Shown: positions 1,333-35,083, counted from the first letter of the stretch. The stretch: 64,000 nucleotides of DNA from an uncultured Erythrobacter sp. (GCA_947495695.1 CANLZP010000001.1:143069-207068); one strand, 5' to 3'. Made by a program: numbers and translations. Notes: generated from the sequence alone by a model not told the origin.

Positions 1333-1370
1333 GGGGCGGAAAGCACAGTCTCTGAAACCGCTTTACCATC
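1333..1370. repeat. Degenerate copy of the dispersed palindromic repeat family
   Basis: GGGGCGGAAAGC...AACCGCTTTACCATC resembles GGGTGGAAAGCGG at 3640 and GTCTGCTTTCCACCC at 22476. Confidence 0.4.
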
Positions 1371-1373
1371 CTA

Positions 1374-2306
1374 TCACAAACAGTCGCCGCGGCTGAGATA
1401 TCGATCGTCAAACAGCATGGGAATTGGTCGTGGCACGCGCGAATTGGCTGCATGGCCAGGGAGGGATTGTGCATGGATATGCAGGTGAGGCTCTTCGGTG
1501 TTGCCAGAGTTTCCAACTTGTCCGAGCAGGTCTCCAACTTCGATTTGCTGGCCTGCAACCACCTGAATGGAACCCTGACGAAAATGCGCCAAGACAACAT
1601 GTGCATCTTTGCAGGAAAGCTCCACGAGATTGGCTCCCTCGTCAGAGCGGTACTCAAACCCCGCCAGATTGTCGGGCTTGTTGTTCTCGACGGACAAAAC
1701 CTTGCCCCCGCAAGGTGCGCGAACGAGCTCGCCAAAAATGGCATAATGGGCCGGATCAGTGGGCTTTGGATGGTAGGACAAATGCGCGAGGGTCCGAAAT
1801 CCAAATTGATTTCGCTTTGTAAAATCCACCGAATGTTTCTCGAAGGACGAGCCTGTGTTTGGACCTTCATAAAAATGCGCATTCAACAGCAACGAATTGC
1901 CACCCGATAGGACACAAGACCCCGCACTACGGGCCAGCGGTGACGCCAATCTGGCGAAAGGCCCGTCCGGCTGCATGCGTCCGGTTGCGCCGCATCCAAT
2001 CAACAACAGACCCATAACTGACATCGCCATACCGGCAACCATAGCCAGTCGCGAAGGTGATTGGCGCGCCGAAGGAACTGGCCTTCGTGCTCGCCAGATG
2101 GCCAGCAGAAACAGAACCAGATAGAGGCCAGCGCCATAGATTGGAGGATAAACCCATATCCCTGCCAGCATCAGGCCAATCAGAAAAAGGCCTGCCCCTG
2201 CGACCAGCAGGGCGAAGTTGCGACGATCGACCGCCCGGGCCGAAGCCACCATCCAGATGATGCTCAGCGCAAGAACATTCTGAACCAAAATTGCAAAAAG
2301 AACCAT
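1374..2306 (-). CDS. M23 family metallopeptidase with N-terminal membrane helices
   Basis: Hydrophobic N-terminus; HSVDF, AHFRQGSI and GNSGNTEEPHLH (HxH) motifs. Confidence 0.85.
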   Translation of the reverse strand: MVLFAILVQNVLALSIIWMVASARAVDRRNFALLVAGAGLFLIGLMLAGIWVYPPIYGAGLYLVLFLLAIWRARRPVPSARQSPSRLAMVAGMAMSVMGLLLIGCGATGRMQPDGPFARLASPLARSAGSCVLSGGNSLLLNAHFYEGPNTGSSFEKHSVDFTKRNQFGFRTLAHLSYHPKPTDPAHYAIFGELVRAPCGGKVLSVENNKPDNLAGFEYRSDEGANLVELSCKDAHVVLAHFRQGSIQVVAGQQIEVGDLLGQVGNSGNTEEPHLHIHAQSLPGHAANSRVPRPIPMLFDDRYLSRGDCL

Positions 2307-2565
2307 GCGCCCCTCAGCTCCGCCAGATCAGCCGCAACACAGTTGGGCTGCCTTACCTCTTGGCGCGATGACATGATGTTGAAGAGGAAGTCAAATGACC
2401 GCGACAAGGCATCGTTTACACTCGCTTCAGCGCCTGCAAGCGGAGCGGCAAACACGATTTCTGCTACCACTTTGGCGTTCGATCATGAACAGTGGGTTCA
2501 ACACCAATTCACCCTAGCGTGGCCAGTCTTCTTTCCCACGGGTAAATCTTAGAGGGAGGATATGT

Positions 2566-3558
2566 ATGCTGAAGCAAAGTATGGGAATCGCTGCTTTACT
2601 CTGCACATGTTCAGCGGCAAGCGCTGAAACACTGACTGTCGCAGGCGTTTATGCAGCAAAGGCCGACATTGCCCCCGACATCCACACGATAGCCGTTGAA
2701 GGCTTCGGCGGTGACGCTGGACAAGAGCTCTCATTCTTACTCACTGACTTGCTGCAGGATGTAGACGTCACCGAAGAGCCTTGGTTCTCGTTTGTACCGG
2801 CAGCAACATTAGCCCAGATCGGCTCGATAGAGAAACAAGACTCGAGGATATTGGCCGGGGTTGAGCCGAGCGGAGCGCATTCTCCTCAATCTATCGCTGT
2901 CTTGCGAGGAACTGCACGCTCACAAACCAATGATTACGAGACAAGCTCCAAGAAGGTGAAGTCATGTGTCGAGAAAGAGAACGGCAAATGCGTTGAGCGC
3001 ATTGTAGAAGTCTATGAATGTCGCGATCTGACGGTGAGCTATTCGCCCTCTCTGCGGCTCATCGCATCTGACGGTGCGCTATTATACGAGAATTCGGACT
3101 ACAGAGAAGCCACCCAAACCTACTGCGAAGATGAAGATCGAATTCCCGACCCGGGCAATATGCTGGCCTCGCTTGCTGCGCAGTATGCGTATTCCGTAAG
3201 ATTAGAGATGGCCCCCCAATTCAGAGCCGAGCGTTTTCGAATCCTGGAAAGTCGCAAAGGATTGTCCAAGGCAGATAGGCCAAAGTTCAAAGATGCAGTC
3301 AGGCTGACAAAAAGCGATCCAGCCGCCGCTTGCCAAGAATTCATCAAGCTTGAAAGCGATTACCCGAAACACGTCTCTATCTTGTTCAACATAGGCCTGT
3401 GCCAGGAGAGCCAAGACGAACTTGGCGACGCTCGCAAGTACTACCTTCGAGTCCTGTCGTACGAGCCAGGCAAGGACATTGCTCTGGCAAGTTTAGCGCG
3501 AATCGAAAGTCGGCTGGCCGCTGAGCGCCAAATCTCCGACCACCTCAATACTCGTTGA
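2566..3558 (+). CDS. Secreted protein with C-terminal tetratricopeptide repeats
   Basis: Signal peptide; TPR-like LFNIGLCQESQDELGDARKYYLRVLSYEPG; strong RBS GAGGGAGG. Confidence 0.75.
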   Translation: MLKQSMGIAALLCTCSAASAETLTVAGVYAAKADIAPDIHTIAVEGFGGDAGQELSFLLTDLLQDVDVTEEPWFSFVPAATLAQIGSIEKQDSRILAGVEPSGAHSPQSIAVLRGTARSQTNDYETSSKKVKSCVEKENGKCVERIVEVYECRDLTVSYSPSLRLIASDGALLYENSDYREATQTYCEDEDRIPDPGNMLASLAAQYAYSVRLEMAPQFRAERFRILESRKGLSKADRPKFKDAVRLTKSDPAAACQEFIKLESDYPKHVSILFNIGLCQESQDELGDARKYYLRVLSYEPGKDIALASLARIESRLAAERQISDHLNTR

Positions 3559-3626
3559 ACTGCTGCGACTTCGATTGCTCTTGTACATGTGAGGCGCAGA
3601 ATCGCCTTGATACAGTGGCCGAGGTC

Positions 3627-3655
3627 AACGTCCGCAATCGGGTGGAAAGCGGATC
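3627..3655. repeat. Dispersed ~30 bp imperfect palindrome (reference copy)
   Basis: AACGTCCGCAATCGGGTGGAAAGCGGATC; first 11 nt identical to the reverse complement of 19717-19727. Confidence 0.7.
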
Positions 3656-3744
3656 AGATTATGGACGAGATACTCTGTCTACTCATATTGCGATGCAGGG
3701 CCAAACACCCCTCACTTTCAATCGCCACGAGATCATAAATGATC

Positions 3745-5133
3745 CTATGCTCCGCTGCGTCCAGATAAATCCTCTACAAAATTCGATGTCCATTGGTGGA
3801 TGTCATCATTGCGGACCGTTTCCACCAGCGCAGCGTACCGTTTTTTGCGTTCTTCGAGCGGCATGTCCAGCGCAGTGCGGATTGCCCGAGATAGATCGTC
3901 TGGGCTGTGTGGATTGACCAAAATTGCATCCGTTAGCTGATGGGCCGCCCCAGCAAATTTTGATAAAATTAGCACGCCGGGATCCTGTGGATCTTGCGCC
4001 GCGATATATTCCTTGGCGACCAAATTCATCCCATCGCGCAGGGGCGTTACCAAGCAGATTTTCGCCGAACGAAAGAAACCGCAAAGCTCAGCCAGACTAT
4101 GCCCGCGGTTCACATAGCGGATGGGCACAATATCGACTTCCGAGCGGGCCCCATTGATTTGGCCGGTTTTTTGTTCGAGTTCAGCCCGAATATCTTGATA
4201 ACTGCCCACATCTTCGCGGCTTGGCGGGGCAATTTGGATATACACTAGATCGCGCACCCGATCAGGGTTTTGGTCAAAAAACCGCGAGATTCCGTCGATC
4301 CGCTCGGGTAATCCCTTTGAATAATCGAGCCGGTCCACGCCAATCATAGCGGTGCGATGACGGGTGCTTTCGAGCAGTCTTTGTGCGGCCTCCTTAGCTT
4401 CTGAAGTGGCGCCTTGGGCTTGGATGTGATCCCAATCCACACCGATGGGATAGGCCCGCGCGCAAGTAACCTTGCCCTCAAAACGGATTTCTCCGGTGTC
4501 TTCGTTGACCTCAGCGCCAAGTTCTTTCTCACAGTAATGCTGAAAGCTGCCCAACCATTCATTGGTCTGGAAGCCGATCACGTCATATTCCAGCATCGTG
4601 CGTACCAAACGCTCATGATATGGGAGTGACACAAACAGCCGCGCTGGTGGCCAAGGTGTGTGAAGGAAGAACCCGATCCGGTTCTTAAAGCCGCGCGAAC
4701 GGAGCCGCTCGCCTAAGGGCAGCAGATGGTAATCATGCACCCAAATCAGGTCGTCTGGTTCGATTAGCGGTGAAACGCTCTCAGCGAAGTGCTCATTGAC
4801 CCGCTCATACCCCTTGCCGAACTCATTTTCATATTCGGTTAAATCGAGGCGGTAGTGAAATAGCGGCCACAGTGTGGAATTTGCATAGCCGTTGTAATAT
4901 TCTTCAACGTCATGTGCACTGAGGTCGATTGTGGCTGTCGTAACCCCGCCATTATTGTTCAACTGGATGTGCCCGGTGGTCTCATCCGCTTCGTTGCCTG
5001 ACCACCCGAACCAGATGCCGCCAAATTTCTTCAATGCTGAATTCAGCGCGCCTGCCAGGCCACCTTGCGCGCCAGCCGCACCGCGCGCTTTGGCGACAGC
5101 GACCCTGTTTGAGATAATGACTAGGCGGCTCAT
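3745..5133 (-). CDS. otsA: Trehalose-6-phosphate synthase
   Basis: GT20 motifs SNRV, GGLA, WVHDYHL, GFFLHTP, GVDRLDYSKG, DGMNLVAKE. Confidence 0.96.
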   Translation of the reverse strand: MSRLVIISNRVAVAKARGAAGAQGGLAGALNSALKKFGGIWFGWSGNEADETTGHIQLNNNGGVTTATIDLSAHDVEEYYNGYANSTLWPLFHYRLDLTEYENEFGKGYERVNEHFAESVSPLIEPDDLIWVHDYHLLPLGERLRSRGFKNRIGFFLHTPWPPARLFVSLPYHERLVRTMLEYDVIGFQTNEWLGSFQHYCEKELGAEVNEDTGEIRFEGKVTCARAYPIGVDWDHIQAQGATSEAKEAAQRLLESTRHRTAMIGVDRLDYSKGLPERIDGISRFFDQNPDRVRDLVYIQIAPPSREDVGSYQDIRAELEQKTGQINGARSEVDIVPIRYVNRGHSLAELCGFFRSAKICLVTPLRDGMNLVAKEYIAAQDPQDPGVLILSKFAGAAHQLTDAILVNPHSPDDLSRAIRTALDMPLEERKKRYAALVETVRNDDIHQWTSNFVEDLSGRSGA

Positions 5134-5140
5134 GATGGCT

Positions 5141-6970: not shown

Positions 6971-7695
6971 GCATGGACGTCTTGCACGCCATTGAGTTTG
7001 AAGTTGGCAGTGTGAGATGGCCGTTCACCAACAGCAATAGCCAATCCGCCATATTTTTGCACTGCAGTAAAGCCATCCTCGTCGGTAACGTCGTCACCAA
7101 TAAAAATAGGTGTGCTGCCCGCAAAAATTGGCGTGTTCATAAATGTAGCAATTGCAGATCCCTTGTTGGCACCGGGGCGAACAAGCTCAATCACGCATTT
7201 GCCGCATTTCATTGTTAGGCCGGACTGTTTTGCGATGATGGCAGCGGCATCCTGGATCGCCGGACCACTTGCAGGCACCGCGCGAAAATGCAGCGCCGCA
7301 CCGTGGCGTTTGCTTTCAAACAATGCGCCATGCTGAGAGGCAAGCTGGCGCAATTGCGCAATATCATTCGCGGGTATTGGTTTGATTTTTGCCCCTAGTG
7401 GCGCGCCATCTGCGCCGATTTGCTCTGCTCCATGGGAGCCCGCGCGGGCGATCTCAAGCTTTCCCAAATGCTGTTCTAAATTGCCCAAGTCGCGACCGCT
7501 TACGAGCGCCAATCGGCCGCCAATTTTATCAGCGACCGCTTTCAGCCGTCCGGCAATATTGTCAGGCACTTCGATCACATCAGGCCCAGCGGCAATTTCA
7601 ATCAGTGTTCCGTCAAAATCCAGAAATAGCGATACCGCTGAAGCCGACTGTAAGGAGGCAAACGATGGAGGAAGAGGCAGGGTTGATCGATTCAT
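6955..7695 (-). CDS. otsB: Trehalose-6-phosphate phosphatase
   Basis: HAD motifs LFLDFDGTL, SGR and FIGDDVTDEDGF; next to otsA. Confidence 0.93.
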   Translation of the reverse strand: MNRSTLPLPPSFASLQSASAVSLFLDFDGTLIEIAAGPDVIEVPDNIAGRLKAVADKIGGRLALVSGRDLGNLEQHLGKLEIARAGSHGAEQIGADGAPLGAKIKPIPANDIAQLRQLASQHGALFESKRHGAALHFRAVPASGPAIQDAAAIIAKQSGLTMKCGKCVIELVRPGANKGSAIATFMNTPIFAGSTPIFIGDDVTDEDGFTAVQKYGGLAIAVGERPSHTANFKLNGVQDVHAWLNL

Positions 7696-7847: not shown

Positions 7848-7876
7848 AACGTTCGCAACTGAGTTGAAAAGCCGAT
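7848..7876. repeat. Dispersed palindromic repeat family copy
   Basis: AACGTTCGCAACTGAGTTGAAAAGCCGAT aligns with the 3627 copy and the reverse complement of 19701-19727. Confidence 0.6.
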
Positions 7877-18068: not shown

Positions 18069-18905
18069 TCAGAACGGCAGCCAGCGCTGTTTTTTGGAAA
18101 ATCGCATATAGCCAGCGTTCACGCCAAGCCGCAGTCCCGCACCCACGCGAATGGGGATCATCACAACATCCCCTTTGCGCAGATAGCTGGCGTGCATACC
18201 GCCCACCACATAGGCTTGGCCCTCGCCTGCAGGATAGCGCTCGTACAGCTCTTCGCTGTCATACAAATTGTAGACCAGGATAAAGGTGTTGCCGGCGTTG
18301 GCACCTGCATCAAAGCCCACCGATGGACCGGTCCAATACACCGGGCGTTCGCCTTCAATCTTATGGTATAGTTTGCCCGATCCATAGCGCGCGCCCACCA
18401 CAAATGCGCCGCCGGCTTCGCGGCCGACAATATAGGCATTGGGTTCGCCCTGATCTTTCAGAGCCTTTTCAATCAATCCGGCCAAGCCTTTGGCACCCTT
18501 GCCGAAGACACCTTCTGCTGCGCCAATCAGATCATCCTCGCCATAGGTGGTCTCCCTGCCTACGCCCGCATTAGCAGCGGTTGTTTCGGTGGGGGGAGGC
18601 ACAGCGTCGGGCGCCTGGTCAACCGACACCGGATCGGCCCATTCGGGCGCTGTCGGAGCGTCATATGCATTGGTGGTTGCCGGGGCAGCGGAGGTAGTCG
18701 TATTGGTCACACTCTGGGCGGCGCCGGCATCACTTGCCGGTAGCTCGCTGGCTGGTGCAAAAAGATCACCATCGATCGCGCCGGTATAGGCTGCGTCGGG
18801 ATCAATGCTCTCCAGTTCCTGAGCGCTGCTGGCGCTGCCCATCAACGCAAACGAGGCGGCGAACGCCAAGCTTACGGTTTTCAAACTTGCGAGAATATGT
18901 GTCAT
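18069..18905 (-). CDS. DUF1134 (EipA-like) exported protein
   Basis: Signal peptide; GEPNAYIVGREAGGAFVVGARYGSG, YWTGPSVGFDAG, IPIRVGAGLRLG. Confidence 0.88.
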   Translation of the reverse strand: MTHILASLKTVSLAFAASFALMGSASSAQELESIDPDAAYTGAIDGDLFAPASELPASDAGAAQSVTNTTTSAAPATTNAYDAPTAPEWADPVSVDQAPDAVPPPTETTAANAGVGRETTYGEDDLIGAAEGVFGKGAKGLAGLIEKALKDQGEPNAYIVGREAGGAFVVGARYGSGKLYHKIEGERPVYWTGPSVGFDAGANAGNTFILVYNLYDSEELYERYPAGEGQAYVVGGMHASYLRKGDVVMIPIRVGAGLRLGVNAGYMRFSKKQRWLPF

Positions 18906-19140
18906 TGTACCCTTCCCTGGCCCGTGCGCGGGCCGATCCAGCGTGAACAGAATCCTTTGATGGGTGGCGGGCAATTGCGCGTCGATGAACGGAATCGAAA
19001 ATACGGCGAACCGAGTCCTATGGTCGTCCAATGCCGGACATGGGCCATTTTCTTGGGCCGATCGCAATTTTTGTGAAGACTCAGCTTGCCGCCTTACCCA
19101 CTGCTCATTATAGCGCGCCCTTCGCATGCCAATGCGATGC

Positions 19141-19233
19141 GGAGACGTGGGTGAGTGGCTGAAACCAGTCCCCTGCTAAGGGACCATACTGTTTATAGCG
19201 GTATCGAGGGTTCGAATCCCTCCGTCTCCGCCA
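19141..19233 (+). tRNA. tRNA-Ser(GCT)
   Basis: Acceptor GGAGACG/CGTCTCC, anticodon arm GTCCC-CTGCTAA-GGGAC, long variable arm, GGTTCGAATCC, encoded CCA. Confidence 0.97.
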
Positions 19234-19667
19234 CCATTTTGTGTAATCTTTTGACTTTAAGATTGAATTTTTCTCTCGCTCCTTGGGCCCCACATTAAGC
19301 CCCACACAAAAGCTTGGCTGCGCGCCCTGCGACAGGGTAATTCTATTACTGATATTGCGGGCAAACTGAGCTCGACGAGGCCTGGAGAGGGAATGCTTGA
19401 GCTTAGCCACTCGCTGCCTTGCCGATACGGACAGCTTGGTGCCGACAAGAAAGAATTCTTTTTCGGGAGAGAGAGCCCCATGGGGGTTGGATCAAGACAA
19501 GGGTGGGGTATGTTCATGGTTGCTCACGAAGGATTTCCCAAAAACGGCTCAACTTATAGTCAACGAGACACTCGTTGAGATTTGCAACACAAGGAACGAT
19601 TGGATGTGAGAAAGTGGTCTTTCTGCTAGTTTTCTAGCGTCAGCCTTCGCTCACAACAGGCCAGAAT

Positions 19668-19782
19668 CTGACAGTCCGCTTACGACCCAGAAGCTGCCGT
19701 TCCTTTCACGACCCAGTTGCGGACGTTAAGCATCTGCTCAAGATTTAGGGGATGCTCGGGCTGCCTTGGATCGGGAAGGGAC
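19668..19782. repeat. Composite cluster of three palindromic repeat units
   Basis: CTGACAGTCCGCTTACGACCCAGAAGCTGCCGTT, CCTTTCACGACCCAGTTGCGGACGTTAAGCATC and an inverted TGGATCGGGAAGGGAC. Confidence 0.7.
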
Positions 19783-19995
19783 TTATATTCTCGAAAGCGT
19801 GCTACCTAAAATTGAGGGCTGAATTTCGAATGCTAGTATTCATCCCTCGAGGAATTTCGGAACGGACTGAGCGGCCTATTTGCATTTGTTCAACCGCGAC
19901 TCACTCCTTTGCCCAAGATCAATAGACATGAGCGGAAACAGTCCTTACTGAATTGGGGGAGAGGGGCTGAAGATGGTAGACTTTGGGGCGGTACT

Positions 19996-21252
19996 ATGAT
20001 GGCCGGCGAAGGTACTGCAAAGGGCTGGAAATCAAAAGTAGCACTCTTCCTTCCAGGAATATTCCTTGTTGGCTTCAACATCGGAACCGGCAGCGTCACG
20101 ACCATGGCTTCGGCTGGCGCGAATTTCGGCATGGCGCTTCTATGGACGGTGCTGATCTCATGCGCCGCGACCTATCTGATGGTTGCGACATATGGTCGCT
20201 ACACTTTAGTCACGGGTGAGACTGCGCTCGAGGCATTTCGGAAACATATTCACCCAGCCGTCGGGCTGTTCTTTATCGCCGCCCTTAGCGTAGGCGTGTT
20301 TGCAAGCCTTATGGGCGTGATGGGGATAGTGGCCGAAATCAGCTTTGAATGGTCGAAGACTTTCATCCCAGGTGGCGTAAAGCCGATCTATTGGGCAGCG
20401 ATCTTTTGCTCGGTCGCCTATTTCATATTCTGGAGCGGCCACACGCAGGTTTTTGAGCGCATTTTGGCCGTGGTTGTAGCCATTATGGGCGTGAGCTTCG
20501 TGCTCAATTTCTTCATCCTCATGCCGCCTGTCTCGGCGATGGCCGCAGGGCTCATCCCATCGGTGCCGGATACTGGGTCGAGCGAGGCGGGACCTTTGCT
20601 GCTTGTCGCATCGATGGTCGGCACCACGATCTTCTCGGGGCTATTCATCATGCGCACAACCTTGGTGAAGGAGGCAGGCTGGACGATCGCACAGGACAAA
20701 CAACAACGGCGCGATGCGGCATTCGCCGCAATCATGATGTTCGTCATCAGCGCATCGATTATGGCGGCCGCAGCGGGGAGCCTATTCGTGGAGGGCATTA
20801 CGCTAGACAGCGCATCGAAAATGATCGGGTTGCTGGAGCCGCTTGCTGGACCGTTGGCTGTCTCAATCTTTGCCATCGGAATTATTGCGGCAGGGGTCTC
20901 GTCTCAGTTTCCGAACCTAATTCTCATTCCATGGCTCATTTGCGATTTTCGCAGCACGCCGCGCGACATGACGATCTGGAAATACCGCCTATTCGTGGGT
21001 ATCATTTCCCTGCTTGGGCTTGTCGTACCTCTTTTTGAGGCAAGACCGGTTTTGGTCCTTATCTTGAGTCAGGCATTCAATGTGGCGCTTTTGCCGATGA
21101 CGGTCGCGTGCATTTTCTATCTCGGCAATCGCAATGACTTGATGGGTGAATACCGCCATTCATGGCTGACCAATGTTGGGCTTGGCGCGATATTCTTCTT
21201 CTCACTCGTAACCGGCTATATGGGCTTTCAGGGCCTAATGGGCATGCTTTGA
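19996..21252 (+). CDS. NRAMP-fold transporter lacking the DPGN motif (YcsG-like)
   Basis: GFNIGTGSVTTMASAGANFG, ASMVGTT; about 11 TM segments. Confidence 0.8.
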   Translation: MMAGEGTAKGWKSKVALFLPGIFLVGFNIGTGSVTTMASAGANFGMALLWTVLISCAATYLMVATYGRYTLVTGETALEAFRKHIHPAVGLFFIAALSVGVFASLMGVMGIVAEISFEWSKTFIPGGVKPIYWAAIFCSVAYFIFWSGHTQVFERILAVVVAIMGVSFVLNFFILMPPVSAMAAGLIPSVPDTGSSEAGPLLLVASMVGTTIFSGLFIMRTTLVKEAGWTIAQDKQQRRDAAFAAIMMFVISASIMAAAAGSLFVEGITLDSASKMIGLLEPLAGPLAVSIFAIGIIAAGVSSQFPNLILIPWLICDFRSTPRDMTIWKYRLFVGIISLLGLVVPLFEARPVLVLILSQAFNVALLPMTVACIFYLGNRNDLMGEYRHSWLTNVGLGAIFFFSLVTGYMGFQGLMGML

Positions 21253-21265
21253 TGGAGTTAGGCTG

Positions 21266-22447
21266 ATGCGCGAATCCTGGCGTTGGTTTGGGCCAAGCGA
21301 TCCGGTCTCGCTGGAGGAAATTCGCCAAACTGGTGCGACCGATATTGTGAGCGCGTTGCACGATATCCCGATCGGCGAGCCATGGCCGCGCGAACAGATT
21401 GCGGCGCATCGCGCAATGGTCGAGCAAGGCAATGTGCCAGGTTCAATTTTGCACTGGACCGTGGTCGAAAGCATCCCTGTTCATGATGACATTAAGATCG
21501 CCTCGCCCGGGTGCGACGCCTATGTCGATGCGTGGATCGAAAGCATTAGGAACCTTGCGGCGGAGGGCATCAAGACCATCTGCTACAACTTCATGCCCGT
21601 TATTGATTGGACGCGAACAGACCTGCGACACCAACTTCCGAATGGCGCATATGCGCTGAAATTTGATCAGGAACGCTTTGCGGCATTTGATCTTTTCATC
21701 CTCAAACGAGCGGGCGCGGAGGCTGACTACAGCGAGGTCGAACTTGCCCGCGCAAGCGCCGCATTTGAAGCGATGTCAGCGGAGGATGTCGCTGGCCTTA
21801 CCAACACGATCATTGCCGGTCTTCCAGGTAAGATGACAGATGCCTATTCGCTAGACGATTTTCGCGCGATGTTGGCGCGCTACAACGGGATCAGCCATAA
21901 CCAACTGCGTGCAAATCTCGTCCAGTTCTTGAAGCGTGTACTGCCCGCCGCAGAGAAACTTGATGTGAAGCTCGCGATCCATCCCGATGATCCACCATGG
22001 AGCATGTTTGGTCTCCCGAGGGTCATCTGCACGCCAGCCGACCTGGATATGCTGTTTGAGGCTGCACCAAGCCGGTCAAACGGCATTACTCTGTGCGTCG
22101 GCACGTTTGGCAGCCGGCCAGACAACAATTTGCCGCAAATGGCGCGCGATTACCGCGATCGAATTCACTTTGCCCATTTACGTGGTGTTTCGCGCGACCC
22201 TGAGGAAGCACGCACATTTGTTGAGGCAAGCCATTTGGACAGCGATATCGACATGCTCAGCGTGATCCGCAATCTGCTCGCCAATGAGCGGGCCACGAAC
22301 CGTGAGATCTTCGTCCGACCCGATCACGGCCATTTGATGATGGGAGATATCTCAAAGGAGACCAATCCTGGCTATTCGGCGATCGGAAGGATGAAAGGTC
22401 TGGCGGAAATACGCGGCGTTATCCGCGCTTTGTCCTCCCCCGTTTAG
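21266..22447 (+). CDS. uxuA: Mannonate dehydratase
   Basis: MRESWRWFGPSD, VVESIPVH, CYNFMPVIDWTRT, AIHPDDPP, RPDHGH, PGYSAIGRMKGLAE. Confidence 0.96.
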   Translation: MRESWRWFGPSDPVSLEEIRQTGATDIVSALHDIPIGEPWPREQIAAHRAMVEQGNVPGSILHWTVVESIPVHDDIKIASPGCDAYVDAWIESIRNLAAEGIKTICYNFMPVIDWTRTDLRHQLPNGAYALKFDQERFAAFDLFILKRAGAEADYSEVELARASAAFEAMSAEDVAGLTNTIIAGLPGKMTDAYSLDDFRAMLARYNGISHNQLRANLVQFLKRVLPAAEKLDVKLAIHPDDPPWSMFGLPRVICTPADLDMLFEAAPSRSNGITLCVGTFGSRPDNNLPQMARDYRDRIHFAHLRGVSRDPEEARTFVEASHLDSDIDMLSVIRNLLANERATNREIFVRPDHGHLMMGDISKETNPGYSAIGRMKGLAEIRGVIRALSSPV

Positions 22448-22473
22448 TCAGCCAAATCTGCTGAGCTCGGACT

Positions 22474-22504
22474 AGGTCTGCTTTCCACCCCAATTCCAGC
22501 CATT
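22474..22504. repeat. Palindromic repeat family copy (minus orientation)
   Basis: Reverse complement AATGGCTGGAATTGGGGTGGAAAGCAGACCT aligns with the 3627 copy; AGGTCTGCTTT recurs at 22536. Confidence 0.65.
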
Positions 22505-22630: not shown

Positions 22631-22695
22631 GGTCTGCAATGCGCCCCAGTCCAAGACGTAAGCATCCGAGATCTTAGTTCCGGAAAGCAGACATT
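22631..22695. repeat. Composite repeat unit directly upstream of the recombinase
   Basis: GGTCTGCAATGCGCCCCAGTCCAAGACGTAAGCATC...GGAAAGCAGACATT; shares CCCAGT....GACGT(T)AAGCATC with 19711-19734. Confidence 0.65.
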
Positions 22696-22721
22696 CTTCG
22701 AGGCCATTCCGGCCAAGGAGA

Positions 22722-23360
22722 ATGAAAATGACCTACTCACACTTTGACCCCGCTGCTCAAAATCGAGTGCCGTGGAATTTTGGAGCGAAGATCGGGCCTA
22801 AGCGTCCATTCAATCAGAAGCAGATCTGGGCGATCCGTTTCTTCTTAGATCGCGAAGAGCGCTTTCGCGATCGAGCGCTGTTCGATCTGGCGATTGATAG
22901 CAAGCTGCGAGGCTGTGATCTCGTCGAGTTGAAGATCGGCGATTTGGTCAGCGGTCCGGACATCAGGACGCGAGCAACAATCACGCAGCGAAAGACAGGT
23001 AGGCCAGTCCAGTTCGAGATCGCAGCTGACGCGCGTGCAAGCTTGTTTGCCTGGCTGGAGCTCAGAGGCGGTGACGTCGAGGACTTTGTCTTTCCGAGCC
23101 GAGTTGATCCCGCTCGCCACTTGAGCACGCGACAATACGCTCGGCTTGTTGATGAGTGGGTGGCAGCTATTGGATTGCGGCCCGAGGAGTATGGCACTCA
23201 CTCGCTGCGCCGCACCAAAGCCTCGATAATCTACAAGGCGACCGGAAACATCCGCGCGATCCAGATCCTGCTGGGCCATTCAAAAATCGAAAACACAGTT
23301 CGCTACTTGGGTGTGGACATTGAGGACGCCCTCACTCTTGCCGAGAAAACCGAAATCTGA
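22722..23360 (+). CDS. Minimal (212 aa) tyrosine recombinase/integrase
   Basis: Catalytic R (SKLRGCDL), HSLR, LLGH and VRYLG residues; no N-terminal arm-binding or core-binding domain. Confidence 0.93.
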   Translation: MKMTYSHFDPAAQNRVPWNFGAKIGPKRPFNQKQIWAIRFFLDREERFRDRALFDLAIDSKLRGCDLVELKIGDLVSGPDIRTRATITQRKTGRPVQFEIAADARASLFAWLELRGGDVEDFVFPSRVDPARHLSTRQYARLVDEWVAAIGLRPEEYGTHSLRRTKASIIYKATGNIRAIQILLGHSKIENTVRYLGVDIEDALTLAEKTEI

Positions 23361-23370
23361 CCGCTGCTGG

Positions 23371-23395
23371 GCGCCAGCCACGACCTGGCTGGCGC
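23371..23395 (+). terminator. Perfect 10 bp hairpin after the recombinase stop codon
   Basis: GCGCCAGCCA-CGACC-TGGCTGGCGC; no U-tract. Confidence 0.45.
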
Positions 23396-23414
23396 TCGCT
23401 ATCGGGAGTGCTGA

Positions 23415-23430
23415 CTGACCGTCCGCTTAC
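23415..23430. repeat. Palindromic repeat family half-copy downstream of the recombinase
   Basis: CTGACCGTCCGCTTAC, 15/16 identical to CTGACAGTCCGCTTAC at 19668. Confidence 0.6.
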
Positions 23431-23509
23431 AATCAATCTTGGTCGCCTAATGGACGGAAGCTAGAAAATCGACTATCGAAAAATGAAGCTGGATGGCCTT
23501 ACCAAGGCG

Positions 23510-29296: not shown

Positions 29297-30102
29297 TTGA
29301 GCGGCCTTGGCAGACGATCAGGAAGGATCAGATTGGTGCTGCCCTTAGTCAACGCAGCAGGCCGATAATCAAGAATTGGCAGCGACTTGAGAGCATTGAC
29401 GATATGGAATTGAGTCGGATTCTGCTCCCAGCTCAGATTTTTCCACTCGACCTTGCCTTCGCCCAGCATGATCTGCGTGATGTGGTTTTCGCTCGGGAAA
29501 GTTGTGTATTCGTCAAGTTTGGGTTCAAATGATCCAGCCTGCTGTATGTAGCGCCAGCCCATTGGATTATCTTTGCCCTTGAGCGCTTTCTCACTGGCGG
29601 CAATCTCCTCAAGTTCAGGCGCGCGCAGTCCAGAGACTTCGATATCGACAATCGTGTGTCCGAAATGGCTCGCATTGCAGCGCCAGACGTCATTGGAGAC
29701 GCTGTGGTCCGGAATATCGGCATAGACTTTGGGAATTCCCTGTAACTCGCGCCCGGTCAGGATTGGATCGGTCAGATTTTCCCAGATGACCAACGCAAAG
29801 GTCCCTCCAAGGGATTCGCCATCACTGCGATAAGTAACGTCGGCATTCACGCCGATCATGTTGTATCCCCTCCCGGCAAGCCAATCGACTTGTCGGTTGC
29901 AGGCATAGAAGACAGAGATGATCGGCTCGGCAGCTGGCTCGAATCCTTGCGGAAGCAACTGCGCCAATTGGCTGCCATCGGTTACATATGGAACAGTCAG
30001 CGCGGTCACGTCGCGATACCAGCCGGAACTGCCCGGACCGTGATAGCGCGCGCCGAAATGTGCCGGCATCATGTGGCTCTTAGTTGGATCACGCTTGAAC
30101 AC
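29293..30102 (-). CDS. Acetoacetate decarboxylase-like family protein
   Basis: LAQLLPQGFEP and GRELQGIPK (Schiff-base Lys position). Confidence 0.82.
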   Translation of the reverse strand: MFKRDPTKSHMMPAHFGARYHGPGSSGWYRDVTALTVPYVTDGSQLAQLLPQGFEPAAEPIISVFYACNRQVDWLAGRGYNMIGVNADVTYRSDGESLGGTFALVIWENLTDPILTGRELQGIPKVYADIPDHSVSNDVWRCNASHFGHTIVDIEVSGLRAPELEEIAASEKALKGKDNPMGWRYIQQAGSFEPKLDEYTTFPSENHITQIMLGEGKVEWKNLSWEQNPTQFHIVNALKSLPILDYRPAALTKGSTNLILPDRLPRPLK

Positions 30103-30114
30103 TCGATCTTCCTC

Positions 30115-31545
30115 TCAATCAGCCGGGGTTAGGGTTTGCGCGACATTGCGTTCATGAGCGGCGCGGTTGATTTTGTAGAGGCGCACGCAAAGCAATCGCA
30201 GGACCCAAAGCACCACAATCGCAATCAGGTAAGTCTTGCCAAATTCCTGCACAGTGCTGTCTGCAACCTGGCCTGGTTCGGCTCCCTCAGGGAAGTTGAC
30301 AACGGCAAGCACCAGCGATGCAGCGAAAATCCCCAAACCCTGCGTTGCCTTTGCCGAAAAAGTGATCGCTGCAAAGAACACACCTTCTGACCGACGCTTG
30401 GTCTTAACCTCGCTTTCTTCCACCAGATCGGCGATCATCGAGAACATCAGCACCTGAAATGAGATTATCAGGGTCATCTCGATCACCGCGACGACGAAAA
30501 TCAGTGGCAATAGGAACGATTGCCCATCTACCGGCATCGGCTCTAGAACGCCGAGCAAGCGCAGGGTGATCAGCACGGGTGACATGAACAATGTCGCGCC
30601 TGCCGCGATAAGCGCTCCATTGCGTTTACCGAACTGCTTGGTGAAGAACGGTGCAATCACCACCGCAAGTGCCGCTCCGACAAGCGATGCGAGGATCAGT
30701 ATGCTAATCTGTTCCTGCGTGAAGCCCCAGAAGAAGGAATTGATGTAGAGATTGAGGCTCATCGCAAGGCCGGTGGCAACCGATGAAAGGATGGTCGCCA
30801 TAAACAGTGCGAAGAACGACTTGCTTGTCAAAGTCTCAAGAATCTCAGCGAATATCAAACCCAGCTTCTTGGCCTGTTTCGCGGGCGCGGCCGGCAAGGT
30901 CGGGATCAATCGGTGCGTGCCGAGACTTGCCACTATGATCGAAACAAAGATCATTGCGGAGGCGATCAGACCATAGGTGGTGAAGCCGTCGCGATTGAAC
31001 AGGCCACTAGGATTGGCTTCATTGGGCGCTAGAATGACAGCCAGCGTAAAGACTGCGATCAGCGTCCCGCCGATCCAGCCAAAGAATGTGCGCCACGCCA
31101 TCAGTGACGTTCTTTCGTCGTAGTCGCGCGTCAGTTCCGCGGCTAGCGCAGAGCTTGGCACTTCATAGAGCGTGATAAGCGTGCGGATCAGGATCGATAG
31201 GACGACCAGATAGGCAAACAGCATATTGCCCGAAATGCCTTCTGGCGGGCTCCAAAGGAAGAAATAGGCAATCGCGACCGGTATTGCAGCGAAATACATC
31301 CATGGGTGCCTGCGCCCCCACCGGCTGCGGGTATTGTCGCTCAGATAGCCGACAAACGGATCGGAGAATGCGTCGAAGACCAGTGCGATAAGCAGCGCCA
31401 GCCCGACCAGTTCTGCTTCAACTCCAAGAATCTGTGAGTAGAACAACAACAGGAAGAAATCGAACCCGTTGTTCTTAACCCCATAGGCGATAGCTCCGAA
31501 ACCATACGCAAGCTTTGTTGCTATCGGAATCTTTGTGGTGGTCAA
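30115..31545 (-). CDS. MFS transporter (glycoside-pentoside-hexuronide type)
   Basis: KLAYGFG, DAFSDPFVGYLSDNTRSRWGRRHP, YDERTSL; likely TTG start at 31545 after GGAGAG. Confidence 0.9.
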   Translation of the reverse strand: MTTTKIPIATKLAYGFGAIAYGVKNNGFDFFLLLFYSQILGVEAELVGLALLIALVFDAFSDPFVGYLSDNTRSRWGRRHPWMYFAAIPVAIAYFFLWSPPEGISGNMLFAYLVVLSILIRTLITLYEVPSSALAAELTRDYDERTSLMAWRTFFGWIGGTLIAVFTLAVILAPNEANPSGLFNRDGFTTYGLIASAMIFVSIIVASLGTHRLIPTLPAAPAKQAKKLGLIFAEILETLTSKSFFALFMATILSSVATGLAMSLNLYINSFFWGFTQEQISILILASLVGAALAVVIAPFFTKQFGKRNGALIAAGATLFMSPVLITLRLLGVLEPMPVDGQSFLLPLIFVVAVIEMTLIISFQVLMFSMIADLVEESEVKTKRRSEGVFFAAITFSAKATQGLGIFAASLVLAVVNFPEGAEPGQVADSTVQEFGKTYLIAIVVLWVLRLLCVRLYKINRAAHERNVAQTLTPAD

Positions 31546-31605
31546 AGTCGCTCTCCAAGCTTTTCTGCTTGAGATCGCTACACGGCTAACCAGGTGCTTC
31601 AATAA

Positions 31606-31622
31606 GGATAGAATAGCTAACC
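31606..31622. promoter_or_regulatory. LysR-type operator (copy 2) upstream of the MFS operon
   Basis: Reverse complement GGTTAGCTATTCTATCC versus GGATAGCTATTCTAACC at 24466 (15/17). Confidence 0.65.
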
Positions 31623-31765
31623 GGTTTTGGTCTTGCTGCAGGCGGCTCCATGCGGCGAAATCACCGAGATTTATCGACTGAACCTAGCAAGATACGCACC
31701 CAACCAGAGGCCACATGCCAACTATGTGGTCATCGCCGTCAATTTGGGGCTTCGGTACGTTTGGA

Positions 31766-31849
31766 AATGACCGCTCATGGTGTCGTTAGCGGAATGGCGG
31801 CTCTTCGCGCTCACAGCCCCATGAGCAGACATTCCGCAATCGGCCCAAT
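31766..31849. repeat. Composite palindromic repeat element
   Basis: AATGACCGCTCATGG...CCATGAGCAGACATT (13/15 inverted repeat); aligns over about 40 nt with the reverse complement of 19688-19727. Confidence 0.7.
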
Positions 31850-31857
31850 ATCCGCCA

Positions 31858-33114
31858 TCACTTTGAGTCAGACTCTAAGATCATATCGTCGGCGATTGAT
31901 TGCGTCAGCTCAATCAGCTCGCCAACGCCGTCCATCTGGCGATTGGTCATGATCGCAATCGAAATTCCATGTTCCGGGTACATTATCAGGAACGCTGTAC
32001 CTCCCATCGCGATGCCCCCGTGGTGGCTTACCATTACCTTGCGGTCTTCGCCGAGCGTGCCATCTAAAGGATGGCTCCGCCAACCGAAGGCGTAATTCTG
32101 CTCGTTGACTTCGCCGCTTCTCAGCATCTGCGGCGCGAAAAACAAATTGTCTCTGGTGGCGGCATCGACATATCCGCCGTTCAAGATCGCCTGCGTCATC
32201 AGAACTAGGTCAGCGGGCGTTGAAACAAATCCCCCGCCGGCTGTCTTGTTGGAGTTTTCGACCGGATATGCGGGTTTGTACTCATTGTCCCTAACTGCAT
32301 AGGGCACGGCTATGTCTCCGTTCGCTAGACCCTCTCTCATTGTATTTGTCATAGAGAGTGGCGATGTCAGCTTAGCTGCGATAATCTCATCAAAGGACAG
32401 GCCGCTCGCACCCTCCATGGCTGCCGCCGCCAGCGTAAACCCATGCGAGCTATAAGAAAATTCTGTTCCGGGCTCGAACAGTAACTCAGAATCCGCGAAA
32501 GTCGCAACGGCGCTTTCTACACTGTCGTGGCTCGTTTGGTTGCTGTATTCGTCGAACGGGAAGCAAAAGCAGAATTCATAATGACGGATGCCAGCGGTAT
32601 GAGTGAACAGCTGCCGTGGAGTGATGTCATATTTTTTCGCAGGGAAGTATGGAACGATCCTTCGAATGGGCGCATCAAGGTCCAGAATACCCTCTTCCAC
32701 AAGTTTCGCGGCTGTCGTTGCGGTCACAGCTTTTGAAACACTGCCGATCCGAAACATTGTATCCAGTTTAGCGGGCGTTTCAGTCTCGAGGTTTCCAAAT
32801 CCCATGGCGCGTGCCCACACAACTCGGCTGTCTTTGCCGATGGCAATTGAAAGGGCTGGAAATTTATTCGCTGTTACCGCGTCATCCAGTCTCGCATTGG
32901 CCGAAGCAATAACCGCAGCAAATTCGTCTGGTATGGGCGATTGCTCACCTGCAGTTCGATCAAGAGCTGGAATGTTTTTCCAACCGCTATTGAAGACGAA
33001 AACGGGTTCAAACAATTTGAAGATTGCAATCATCAGTCCGATTGTGAAAGCCAAAGAAACGAGCAGAATGCGCATCCGCTTGAACCGATTGTCTTGAGTT
33101 TTGGTCACTACCAT
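31858..33114 (-). CDS. Serine hydrolase, beta-lactamase/peptidase S12 family
   Basis: FRIGSVSK (SxxK), LFTHTAGI, FSYSSHG, HHGG; N-terminal TM anchor. Confidence 0.92.
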   Translation of the reverse strand: MVVTKTQDNRFKRMRILLVSLAFTIGLMIAIFKLFEPVFVFNSGWKNIPALDRTAGEQSPIPDEFAAVIASANARLDDAVTANKFPALSIAIGKDSRVVWARAMGFGNLETETPAKLDTMFRIGSVSKAVTATTAAKLVEEGILDLDAPIRRIVPYFPAKKYDITPRQLFTHTAGIRHYEFCFCFPFDEYSNQTSHDSVESAVATFADSELLFEPGTEFSYSSHGFTLAAAAMEGASGLSFDEIIAAKLTSPLSMTNTMREGLANGDIAVPYAVRDNEYKPAYPVENSNKTAGGGFVSTPADLVLMTQAILNGGYVDAATRDNLFFAPQMLRSGEVNEQNYAFGWRSHPLDGTLGEDRKVMVSHHGGIAMGGTAFLIMYPEHGISIAIMTNRQMDGVGELIELTQSIADDMILESDSK

Positions 33115-33386
33115 TTTTCCTTTAGAAATCTCTGAACTGCTGAGACCAAATCCCAACCGAGAGAGGTGTTCTTACCGTATATATAGACACTGTCAATTTT
33201 TGAAATCTCTTGGCCTTGTCCCATGGTTATGGATATTTCGATCAGGCTCACATGATCAACGACCTCCGCAATCTGACCGGCCGAACGCCAGTGCATCTGA
33301 TTGGAGAACGCCAAGCTGAGGCAAGATCTGGCCTATGATCTTCGGTGGCAGCTAGCGCCGTGAGAATTCGCACCGCTAGTCGCTGC

Positions 33387-33950
33387 TCAAGTTGGCTTCG
33401 CAGCGTCCAATATTTTGTCAGATAATGAAGGGCTGTTCACAGCGCGTGCCAGTGTGACACCGCCAATCAAACTGCTGAGATAGGACCATGCATTTGCGAG
33501 TCGTTCCGGTTTGCTTGCCCCATCCATCTTATCCGCGACCAAACCAGCAATTGCTTGCATCTTCTGTTCGTAGAGCGCGCGTGTTTTTTCGTTAGCGCGA
33601 ACAACTTCTGGAGAAAATGCTGCCATAGCGCATCCGCCGGACAGATTATCGCGGTGCGCTTTGCCAAGATAATAGTTTGAAAATTCCGTCGTCCAATCAT
33701 CGCCATGCTTCAATTGAAACTCGGGGACGGCCGCAATGACCTCGTCAAGGCCAGCGATAAGCGCGGCCTCAAATGCTGCCGCCTTCGAGCCAAAGTGTGC
33801 GTAGAACGCCCCGGATGTGACGCCAGCCCCCTTTGCAAGCCCGTCAACTCCGATGCCATCGTAACCCTTACTGCGGAAACCGCGACCTGCCGCGTCCAGA
33901 ATCCGGCGCCTTGTTTCCAGCTTACGCTCATCCTGCTTCGTCAAACTCAA
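33387..33950 (-). CDS. TetR/AcrR family regulator
   Basis: ILDAAGRGFRSKGYDGIGVDGLAKGAGVTSGAFYAHFGSK. Confidence 0.93.
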   Translation of the reverse strand: MSLTKQDERKLETRRRILDAAGRGFRSKGYDGIGVDGLAKGAGVTSGAFYAHFGSKAAAFEAALIAGLDEVIAAVPEFQLKHGDDWTTEFSNYYLGKAHRDNLSGGCAMAAFSPEVVRANEKTRALYEQKMQAIAGLVADKMDGASKPERLANAWSYLSSLIGGVTLARAVNSPSLSDKILDAAKPT

Positions 33951-33973
33951 TTCCTTATCAAATCCACAAATTT

Positions 33974-34057
33974 ATATAGCGGTCGTTATATTTACTTGAC
34001 GGCATAGCGATCGTTATATATCTGGCCCTCACGAACGTTATATAACGATCTCTATAT
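33974..34057. promoter_or_regulatory. Three TetR-type operator palindromes
   Basis: ATATAGCGGTCGTTATAT (33974), CATAGCGATCGTTATAT (34003), ATATAACGATCTCTATAT (34040). Confidence 0.7.
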
Positions 34058-34100
34058 AATTGCAAAGCATAGGTGCTTTGCTGACCGATGAAGGAAAAAT

Positions 34101-34532
34101 ATGCCTTATCTTCAAATTATTACTTCACAGGATTCGCTGGACAAAGCAGCGCAAGGGGCGCTGGTTTGTCGTATTTCCAATGCTATTCTGGAAGCCGAGT
34201 GCGCCAAAATTGGTGATGCCGCTGCGCAATCGCTTGTCTGGGCGCATTACTTTGAGCTTCCGCAAGACGCCATTTATGTTGGTGGGAAAGTTATCGAAGC
34301 ACCGCCTTTTCGCATCGCCATACACACTCCTGAAGGCGCGCTCACTGATATCACCCGAGGCAGGCTTGTCAGCGCAATCGGCAATATTGTCGATGATATC
34401 GCCGGGCCAATTGAGGGGCGTCTGAACCATTGGACGATGCTCTACGAAATTACCGACGGCAACTGGGGGGCGGGGCAGGTTCTTCGCTTGCCCGATATCC
34501 AGTCAGCAATGAACATTAAGCAAGCCGCTTAA
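34101..34532 (+). CDS. Tautomerase superfamily protein
   Basis: N-terminal M-P (catalytic Pro-1), two beta-alpha-beta units, EITDGNWGAG. Confidence 0.8.
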   Translation: MPYLQIITSQDSLDKAAQGALVCRISNAILEAECAKIGDAAAQSLVWAHYFELPQDAIYVGGKVIEAPPFRIAIHTPEGALTDITRGRLVSAIGNIVDDIAGPIEGRLNHWTMLYEITDGNWGAGQVLRLPDIQSAMNIKQAA

Positions 34533-34569
34533 TCCGAGCGAACCCTCGTAAACATGCAAAGGAATACCA

Positions 34570-35049
34570 ATGCTCAAGAAAACTACAATCGGACTATTTG
34601 CCGCGTCCATTTTGGCCGCGGGCTTCACCTCAACCGCCCAAGCACAAAGTTGCATGCCAATCGGCGGCGTCGCGATCCCTCACTTCTACGCAGAAGGTGA
34701 AGGTAACCCGATGATTATTTCTGCTGCCCTTACAGGGAGTGTCCAAAATGCTGCTGGCAAAATTACGGCGCAAAGGGAGACAGCCACCGGCCTCGAAATG
34801 GATATGGAACATTATTTCGGCCGGGATGACGGCGGCGCGTTTCAGACCAAGGACTTGGGCGTGCTCACGGCCATTCCGGGAAAACCAGGTCGGTATATGA
34901 TCGAGATTACCTACCATATCCAAGACGACGTAACCCGCGGAACGCTTGAGGGTTATACTGGCCAGTTCAGCAGCTACGGACTCGTCGATCTGCGAGACCC
35001 CGACAATCTCGTTGGTCTTGTCCGCTACACCGGCTCGATTTGTAAATAG
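34570..35049 (+). CDS. Secreted beta-rich hypothetical protein (possibly dirigent/allene oxide cyclase-like barrel)
   Basis: Signal peptide, terminal Cys pair, VTRGTLEGYTGQF turn motif; fold call is inference. Confidence 0.65.
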   Translation: MLKKTTIGLFAASILAAGFTSTAQAQSCMPIGGVAIPHFYAEGEGNPMIISAALTGSVQNAAGKITAQRETATGLEMDMEHYFGRDDGGAFQTKDLGVLTAIPGKPGRYMIEITYHIQDDVTRGTLEGYTGQFSSYGLVDLRDPDNLVGLVRYTGSICK

Positions 35050-35056
35050 CTCTACT

Positions 35057-35083
35057 GGTCCGCCCACCCCCATTGGGCCACGT
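35057..35083. repeat. Degenerate palindromic repeat family copy
   Basis: GGTCCGCCCACCCCCATTGGGCCACGT resembles 22475-22504; 7 nt after a stop codon. Confidence 0.4.

Follow-up and report, generated by a model that had tools for sequence, protein, structure and literature searches.

Acinetobacter plasmids carry pdif modules, discrete segments that are bounded by short arm-spacer-arm sites of tyrosine recombinases and depend on XerC and XerD (PMC6449649). In integrons a tyrosine recombinase moves promoter-poor modules that each carry one imperfectly palindromic site, and site arrays without an integrase are known as CALINs (clusters of attC sites lacking integron integrases). Repetitive extragenic palindromes (REPs) and their paired forms, REPINs, are short intergenic repeats that occur in many copies, are lineage-restricted and vary in number; in the REPtron, REPs lie inverted on both sides of the gene for a REP-associated tyrosine transposase (RAYT, PF01797). 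Here we describe an arrangement with traits of all three in a stretch of 64,000 nucleotides from an uncultured Erythrobacter sp. (GCA_947495695.1 CANLZP010000001.1:143069-207068, or C1:143069-207068; "the window"), where the gene for a tyrosine recombinase of 212 amino acids (aa) lies among dispersed repeats of about 31 bp, which we call units. An earlier note, made from the sequence alone, had picked out these repeats between positions 1333 and 35083 as borders of gene modules.

The system looks like a counterpart, on the chromosome, of pdif modules or integron cassettes, and by their defining tests it belongs to none of the REPtron, integron, dif and FimB/FimE families. As with pdif, discrete modules lie between short arm-spacer-arm sites, the same module is met in different contexts (here an NRAMP-uxuA module at four loci, an RND module that moved and one cassette that was replaced), and the mechanism is approached by comparative genomics ahead of biochemistry. 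In contrast to pdif, the units are unlike dif, the modules are chromosomal, a dedicated small recombinase gene sits on a cassette of its own, and the sites around the NRAMP-uxuA and RND modules are direct, whereas those of pdif modules are inverted. The likeness to integrons extends to the CALINs, which parallel unit-rich genomes without the recombinase. Unlike IntI, however, the recombinase lacks the IntI-specific insertion (TIGR02249, 20.9 bits against a cut-off of 265); the units are 31 bp long with conserved arms and spacer and fold mostly like shuffled sequence, whereas attC sites are hairpins of 57-141 bp (R''-L''...L'-R') that recombine as folded single strands; a fixed attI/Pc platform is absent, and the gene for the recombinase forms a cassette itself; and a module can comprise several genes together with a regulator of its own.

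The REPtron shares with this locus the short palindromic intergenic repeats and the enzyme gene between two inverted repeats, but the enzyme here is a PF00589 tyrosine recombinase and not an HUH Y1 transposase, PF01797 is absent, and the units have no GTAG tag and combine a 6-bp stem with a conserved 13-nt centre. The CGTC REPs of Alphaproteobacteria, reported without a dedicated transposase, consist of an unpaired CGTC tag, a stem of 8-9 bp starting with AT, a loop of 4-5 nt and a CCA tail (Di Nocera et al. 2013, PMC3733652). Like the units they are alphaproteobacterial intergenic palindromes found mostly 3' of genes; in the units, by contrast, CGTC belongs to the arm, the arm is GTCCGC, the centre has 13 nt and the CCA tail is absent. 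FimB and FimE are likewise tyrosine recombinases of about 200 aa that have no N-terminal core-binding domain and act on short inverted repeats, but the present protein falls outside that subfamily (22.4 bits for NF007371, cut-off 222) and the observed events move or replace modules and do not invert a promoter segment. Neither this recombinase nor the site family was found described in the literature searched; subscription journals lay outside its coverage, and an earlier description may exist.

Exchange of modules at the units

Direct evidence that modules move comes from a near-conspecific genome (G111) that is 94-96% identical to this one over long syntenic blocks and of which 800 kb were compared. 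The NRAMP-uxuA module (19906-22504, plus strand, right-hand unit included) recurs with 97% identity in G111, 89% in G055 and 85% in G006, and it occupies four different loci in the four genomes, those in G111, G055 and G006 being syntenic to C2:361-365 kb, C2:133-143 kb and C2:317-337 kb of our genome. Units in direct orientation stand on both sides of the module in the window, in G111 and in G055; in G006 the left unit alone was detected. Homology with G111 stops exactly at 22504, the outer end of the unit at 22474-22504. At the intergenic locus that holds the module in G111, our genome has three open reading frames (ORFs) of low coding score (C2:361576-364632), and the inserts differ between genomes.

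A second module, 5.9 kb long (C1:332615-338535), encodes a MarR regulator, a hydrolase and an RND pump, and is found relocated in G111 with 99.85% identity. In our genome it is bounded by two minus-strand units (332617-332646 and 338518-338547), and its junctions in G111 are hybrid units. At one end a new left arm is joined to the same TGGGGTGGAAAGCGGAC; at the other, the same ...TTTTGGGTCGTAAGCGG is joined to the right arm and flank of the window unit at 19671-19701. A G111 hybrid unit links window positions 19440-19694 to the context of C1:332617. Replacement is seen as well: in place of the 10.6 kb at C2:339856-350427, the same two orthologous units enclose 0.5 kb of other DNA in G111, and the segment C2:323734-328537 behaves similarly. 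At five natural junctions the sequences diverge at the boundary of arm and spacer or just past the spacer, which fits strand exchange in the spacer as in core sites of the loxP, FRT and dif type, although cleavage points cannot be mapped from sequence. Short public metagenome contigs contain pieces that end at 19694, 22504 and 23410.

Within the 800 kb compared, 8/16 of our units lie at most 50 bp from a synteny or indel breakpoint, as against 3.8% of random intergenic positions; three of the other units lie inside segments specific to our genome and one at the start of a G111 contig. Seen from G111, 8-9 of its 13 units fall within about 80 nt of a breakpoint, judged by inspection of the unit list against block ends. 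Two expectations of the earlier note, that copies should be enriched at synteny breakpoints and that gene modules are shuffled at them, are thus borne out, the latter by the relocated NRAMP-uxuA and RND modules and their hybrid junction units. It is well supported by these comparisons that units border independently mobile modules and that recombination takes place inside units, and the junctions indicate that recombination between units has occurred with a crossover in or next to the spacer.

The modules themselves were only partly those proposed. The NRAMP-uxuA module and the recombinase cassette stand; the LysR block was found without flanking units in two other genomes, and the border suggested at 35057 is refuted by a homologous block in G084 that runs uninterrupted across that position.

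The repeat family and its copies in the window

The sequence GGGTNGNAAGCGGA occurs 11 times in the genome (2.74 Mb, three contigs, 56.6% G+C), where about 0.3 occurrences are expected. Since a generic repeat finder missed the family, profiles were built by hand: three iterations of nhmmer from 19 seeds (E<0.05, all contigs) recovered 32 copies, distributed over all three contigs. All but one (31/32) are intergenic, though the genome is 88% coding by our own codon-usage gene caller; the claim that every copy is intergenic therefore holds with a single exception. Most copies lie 20-130 nt beyond the 3' end of a gene, and 13/31 lie between convergent genes. A position weight matrix (PWM) gives 25 genome matches of at least 20 bits and none in shuffled sequence, so that the copies do score better than shuffled DNA. 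The repeat family is real, and far beyond chance.

The unit of about 31 bp has the consensus AAyGTCCGC-AA-TTGGG(G)TsG-wwA-GCGGAC, or more fully AAyGTCCGC-AA-TTGGGTCG-TTA-GCGGAC-AGTC, and a second subfamily follows GAAATTGGGGTGGAAAGCGGAC. Two arms of about 9-11 bp (nnnGTCCGCwA and its complement) enclose an asymmetric spacer of 8-9 bp, TTGGG(G)TsG, which agrees with the earlier description of two inverted arms of about 11 bp around a spacer of about 8 bp. The centre is the best-conserved part and the arms decay independently: 69% of arm cells are paired compared with 73.5% in shuffles, with one compensatory cell, so no covariation of the arms was detected. The consensus AAyGTCCGCAATTGGGTCGTTAGCGGAC has a 6-bp stem that includes GTC and a 13-nt centre, and a hairpin of 6-8 bp is possible (-6.4 kcal/mol, z = -2.9), but 3/5 window copies fold no better than shuffles and a T-run is absent. 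A reading as structured RNA or terminator was dropped because the arms do not covary and the folding energies are mostly unremarkable. At the Rfam gathering threshold the window returned only the tRNA, the family remaining unmatched, and no flanks or target duplications common to the copies were found beyond about 35 nt. The geometry of the CGTC REPs differs from that of the units; like REPs in general, the units are short intergenic imperfect palindromes that occur in many copies.

A sequence-only covariance model found the family in 20/24 genomes of the genus, with 0-54 copies per genome, and zero copies in 16 other genera of the order; in a larger sample of the genus, one or more copies occur in 79/121 genomes. 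The family is restricted to a single genus.

The sequences quoted by the earlier note are all present where it placed them, and its list of copies divides into three groups (Table 1): those at 3627, 19671, 19697, 22474 and 31829 are solid, those at 7848 and 23415 are weak, and those at 1333 and 35057 are unsupported, with PWM scores of -37 and -27 bits. The NRAMP start is separated from the tandem units by 178 nt (19728-19905), where G111 has only about 25 nt. Within them, GACGTTAAGCATCTGCTCAAGATTTAGG resembles the left end of the recombinase cassette, GACGTAAGCATCCGAGATCTTAG, and looks like a leftover left-end site (L-site) without its recombinase.

Table 1. Features of the range studied, in window positions; R-site, right-end site of the cassette.
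Feature	Position	Strand	Evidence or remark
TetR gene, M23 peptidase gene, TPR gene, otsA, GH15 gene, otsB			Start of the range, in this order
Unit AACGTCCGCAATCGGGTGGAAAGCGGATCAG	3627-3657	+	Outside the island, between TPR gene and otsA (convergent); nhmmer E = 6e-5; PWM 33 bits
Possible decayed unit AACGTTCGCAACTGAGTTGAAAAGCCGAT	7848-7876	+	About 24/29 consensus positions by eye; PWM -5 bits, nhmmer no match; weak
Amino-acid permease, SSB, FeoB, aminotransferase, EipA	EipA: 18069-19127		Follow the preceding genes
tRNA gene	19141-19230	+	Rfam RF00005, 56.5 bits
Two overlapping tandem units, left border of NRAMP-uxuA module	19671-19701, 19697-19727	-	nhmmer E = 0.0013 each; PWM 32.5 and 30.3 bits
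NRAMP	19909-21252		
UxuA	21266-22447		
Subfamily-II unit AATGGCTGGAATTGGGGTGGAAAGCAGACC, right border of NRAMP-uxuA module	22474-22504	-	nhmmer E = 0.0015
L-site region	22631-22695		Left end of the recombinase unit, not a plain copy; related via one arm and the CCCCA core
Cassette left end: L-site GGTCTGCAATGCGCCCCAGTCCAAGAC...GAAAGCAGACATTC, then GGCCATTCCGGCC palindrome and ribosome-binding site	22632-22721	+	
PF00589 protein, 212 aa	22722-23360	+	
Terminator-like hairpin (23369-23397) overlapping decayed R-site (GCGCTCGCTATCGGGAGTGCTGACTGAC)	23369-23419	+	
Decayed right-end R-site of recombinase cassette	23392-23419		
Partial unit-like sequence	23420-23457		The copy placed at 23415 by the earlier note; PWM -5.6 bits; not significant
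LysR block: LysR gene, TonB receptor, TauD, 3-hydroxyacyl-CoA dehydrogenase, acetoacetate decarboxylase-like gene, MFS transporter			After the recombinase
Marginal copy	31766	+	
Unit between MFS-transporter gene of LysR block and next gene	31829-31859	-	PWM 20.7 bits; first-round nhmmer E = 0.87

The range is variable from the 3' side of the tRNA gene onwards. Compared with G008, the window differs from 19.2 to about 52.3 kb, where synteny returns; these ~33 kb (19231-52300) are missing from G008, which has 5.7 kb there. G008 (locus L020 = G008:C6) is placed in the same genus and has long synteny with the window, so its public title 'MAG: Marinomonas sp.' looks wrong. The segment 23375-37499 is absent from G111. 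Neither a large integrase nor a second copy of the tRNA 3' end was found within the window; in G008, G014 and L023, look-alikes of the tRNA 3' end, 31-36 nt long, occur at a distance of a few kb from copies of the recombinase. The 352-aa ORF at 18069-19127, which adjoins the tRNA gene, is EipA and not a recombinase; the recombinase is the ORF at 22722-23360. An intergenic tandem repeat of 27 nt at 37568-37621 (TTTACTATCAAATTGACAGCGTCTATA / TTGACTATCAAATTGACGGCGTCAATA, 89% identical) may be a paired operator.

The recombinase and its cassette

The 212-aa protein matches PF00589 (E = 4.2e-21, 75.9 bits, cut-off 27.1), and the catalytic motifs R, K, HxxR, H and Y can be read in its translation as SKLRGCDL, QRKTGR, HSLRR, LLGH and VRY. 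Residues 41-200 align only to positions 124-282 of XerD, the catalytic domain; Pfam assigns the protein no second domain, and the N-terminal core-binding (SAM-like) domain of Xer, Cre and phage integrases was not found. It reaches none of the curated NCBIfam cut-offs; besides the IntI and Fim scores given above, NF011946 gives 15.9 bits (cut-off 435) and NF007370 gives 16 (cut-off 221). There are more than 8000 homologues, almost all of about 210-212 aa, with 74-97% identity in Erythrobacteraceae, Sphingomonadaceae and many Rhizobiales; named relatives that carry it include Erythrobacter, Altererythrobacter, Qipengyuania and other Erythrobacteraceae. Within the genus the gene is present in roughly every second genome, often in 2-3 non-identical copies together with pseudogenes, one of which lies in this genome at C3:357811-358182. 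Comparison with locus L016 shows 88 synonymous and 6 non-synonymous codon differences (protein 97%, DNA 85% identical): purifying selection on the recombinase is strong, and it looks functional.

The earlier note had taken the recombinase to be a module in its own right, and this was confirmed: among 94 fetched recombinase loci, homology is confined to window positions of about 22632-23410, with nothing common outside. The cassette of about 780 bp thus consists of the recombinase gene and family-like sites at both ends. In close loci the left-hand homology starts at AAyGnCyGC-ww-TGCGCCCCAAtccAAGAC...GAAAGCGGACATTC, 81-90 nt 5' of the ATG (left-end consensus AAyGnCyGCwwTGCGCCCCAA). At the right end of these loci the 3' arm of the hairpin runs into GTCCGCTTsTGGGGGTGGAAGCGGAC, which is a subfamily-II unit, and homology stops after it; relatives read GCGTCCGCTTCTGGGGGTGGAAGCGGAC at the position of the R-site, and homology stops directly after. 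In a species-representative collection of 80 loci, 34 (42.5%) have TGGGGTGGAAAGCGGA, with at most 3 mismatches, in the 160 nt past the stop codon, compared with 0.6% of 4522 control windows from those loci. The motif occurs at two fixed offsets past the stop, about 45 nt in Erythrobacteraceae and about 75 nt in Rhizobiales, and the loci that bear it include Mesorhizobium, Aminobacter and Xanthobacter. The recombinase gene is bracketed by family-type sites across two orders of Alphaproteobacteria. The GGCCATTCCGGCC palindrome (22697-22709), directly 5' of the ribosome-binding site, is kept in nearly all loci from L015 to L094; L053 and L055 have GGTCATTCCGACC there, with both sides changed and the palindrome preserved, and Rhizobiales have GGCCAATCAAGGCC. 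The palindrome may serve in translation as a hairpin or in autoregulation as an operator.

The cassette also forms part of a recently spread element of 7.05 kb, a stretch 99.7% identical in Altererythrobacter sp. GH1-8, Erythrobacter sp. NAP1 and Qipengyuania sp. S6317L1; its full extent was delimited between GH1-8 and NAP1, S6317L1 being compared over the fetched 3.7 kb only. The left end of the element coincides exactly with the L-site; the left flanks, three in number and unrelated, part at the boundary of arm and spacer. On the right the element stops at GACCGTCAACTAACGGCCCAA, which repeats the L-site imperfectly and in direct orientation. Its cargo comprises a MarR gene, an alpha/beta hydrolase, a thioesterase-like gene, a membrane-fusion protein and an RND pump. 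The relocated RND module described above is colinear with this cargo at 73-74% DNA identity, and its left unit occupies the position that the R-site has next to the recombinase, which makes the R-site the junction between two cassettes.

Candidate enzymes and rival explanations

The module shuffling is probably catalysed by the 212-aa recombinase, which from its own cassette could act in trans on the units as core-type sites; this assignment is plausible and the most likely one, with about an even chance of being right. We infer conservative site-specific recombination by this enzyme through a circular intermediate. A unit would provide two inverted binding arms (GTCCGCwA) around the 8-9 bp crossover spacer TTGGG(G)TsG; a module between two direct units would be excised as a circle with one site, and the circle would re-insert at any other unit, leaving hybrid units at the junctions, while the recombinase, carried on its ~780-bp two-site cassette, would act in trans on the dispersed units. 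A modest indication that recombinase type and site variant vary together comes from the variant end motif TGGGTGGNTTYCTG, with 15 matches in 7 genomes that have a recombinase of a divergent clade and 2 in 9 others, a count uncorrected for phylogeny. More tentatively, and with chances that fall a little short of even, the whole may be an undescribed alphaproteobacterial system in which a ~210-aa recombinase on a ~0.8-kb cassette and REP-like sites of 31 bp move multi-gene modules, including the cassette itself, between chromosomal sites; the recombinase would then also be the enzyme for a class of palindromic repeats that lack a RAYT.

Several results weigh against this picture. The number of units is unrelated to the presence of the recombinase: in the 121 genomes of the genus there are 246 units in 63 positive genomes (mean 3.9) and 238 in 58 negative ones (4.1), and the two show no link at the level of genomes. 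Several complete genomes have as many as 12-24 units and yet no intact copy of the gene, G015, G110 and G133 having none and G057 a 116-nt fragment. In 12 other recombinase-bearing genomes, conversely, TGGGGTGGAAAGCGGA occurs only 0-2 times each and the dispersed family is not there; the site thus belongs to the cassette, its dispersed amplification is special to this genus, and dispersed repeats are not a general product of the recombinase. The two sites around the recombinase gene are mutually inverted whereas those of the NRAMP-uxuA and RND modules are direct, so that no single simple model of excision and integration covers all cases. In the 7-kb element, the codon for the conserved Trp111 of the recombinase is replaced by TGA in 4/4 copies (L033, L034, L035 and L037; LFAWLEL to LFA*LEL), which means that the element moved without a working recombinase in cis and that its spread needs action in trans, read-through or another enzyme; a second copy in GH1-8 is intact. 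G126 and G143 share the LysR block as a conserved unit, and units flanking it were found in neither. The breakpoint at C2:120339, considered as a unit event, proved to be a tRNA-flanked island. G111 has there (C1:788618-796353) a 7.7-kb island at a tRNA gene with a direct repeat of the tRNA 3' end (our C2:120440-120520); a unit about 100 nt away is not involved. Of the earlier proposal that the repeats are substrates of the adjacent recombinase and drive shuffling, the shuffling at units has stood, and the missing correlation and the nonsense-mutated copy in an element that spread leave the recombinase as a plausible catalyst and no more.

These same observations on unit number, on unit-rich genomes and on an element that reached three species with a nonsense-mutated recombinase are what would be expected if the units were hot spots or attachment sites worked by another enzyme or process, the recombinase cassette being a mere passenger that inserts there. 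We regard this as rather unlikely, yet the most serious of the alternatives. It is also favoured by the 13/32 units that lie within 20 kb of any PF00589 gene (10.5% of random intergenic positions do) and by a different integrase, a 347-aa tyrosine recombinase at C1:341481-342524 that has a near-perfect subfamily-II unit (GAATGTCTGAAATTGGGGTGGAAAGCGGACATTC, C1:341371-341404) about 80 nt past its stop. That protein is 25% identical to the 212-aa one and unrelated to it beyond the fold; as the partner enzyme it was rejected, being present in only 8/121 genomes of the genus. Nor do other candidates fit well. PF01797 has no match anywhere in the genome in a search that matched 6/14 control genomes, and RAYT was therefore dropped. 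The only dif-like sequence found, with the pattern of the E. coli site (XerC arm, 6-bp spacer, XerD arm), is a candidate chromosome dimer-resolution site at C2:531405 (GAATGATAATATATATTATGTTAAAT); it shares nothing with the units, which makes XerCD an unlikely partner. The units, of about 31 bp at 70-80% identity, are too short and diverged for RecA-dependent homologous recombination to be efficient. Against a passenger role, the site motif stands at fixed distances on both sides of the recombinase in two orders, including genomes without the dispersed family, so that the sites are part of the cassette and more than a mere target for it.

The two remaining explanations start from the likeness to REPs. 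If the units were ordinary REP-like elements, such as terminators, mRNA stabilisers or nucleoid-protein sites, their proximity to breakpoints would follow from variable regions being rich in intergenic DNA. Their position 3' of genes and between convergent genes, the consensus hairpin, and a copy number and genus-restricted spread like those of REP families (PMC3733652) agree with this, but the breakpoint control consisted of intergenic positions only and still gave 50% against 3.8%, hybrid units with the crossover inside the unit were seen directly, and the missing covariation of the arms, the shuffle-like folding of three window copies, the absent T-run and the Rfam result all speak against it; we hold it to be improbable. 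Still less probable, to the point of being hard to credit, are miniature non-autonomous elements copied in the manner of REPINs or miniature inverted-repeat transposable elements from the ends of the recombinase cassette, with module borders as a by-product. The inverted family-type ends around the recombinase, which recall REPs around RAYT genes (PMC3337134), fit this, as do the variable copy number within the genus and an amplification seen in this genus only. The copies, however, share no flanks or target duplications beyond about 35 nt, and several units are orthologous between our genome (G000) and G111 while the intervening DNA differs. Tyrosine recombinases, moreover, exchange DNA conservatively between two sites, a reaction in which short sequences are not copied.

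Even without an enzyme assignment, short repeats mark the exact points of module exchange between genomes that are about 95% identical, which yields a model, open to test, of how flexible genomic islands turn over. If the recombinase is indeed their enzyme, the two would form a new and very compact pair of recombinase and site, of about 210 aa and about 31 bp, and would illustrate how recombination sites, in place of an HUH transposase, can give rise to a REP-like family. They would also provide a mechanism by which variable regions in marine Erythrobacteraceae genomes are assembled from self-contained modules, among them transporters, efflux pumps and catabolic regulons. Sphingomonadales and Rhizobiales have thousands of proteins of this recombinase family, all annotated only as 'tyrosine-type recombinase/integrase', so that a defined function would change many annotations.

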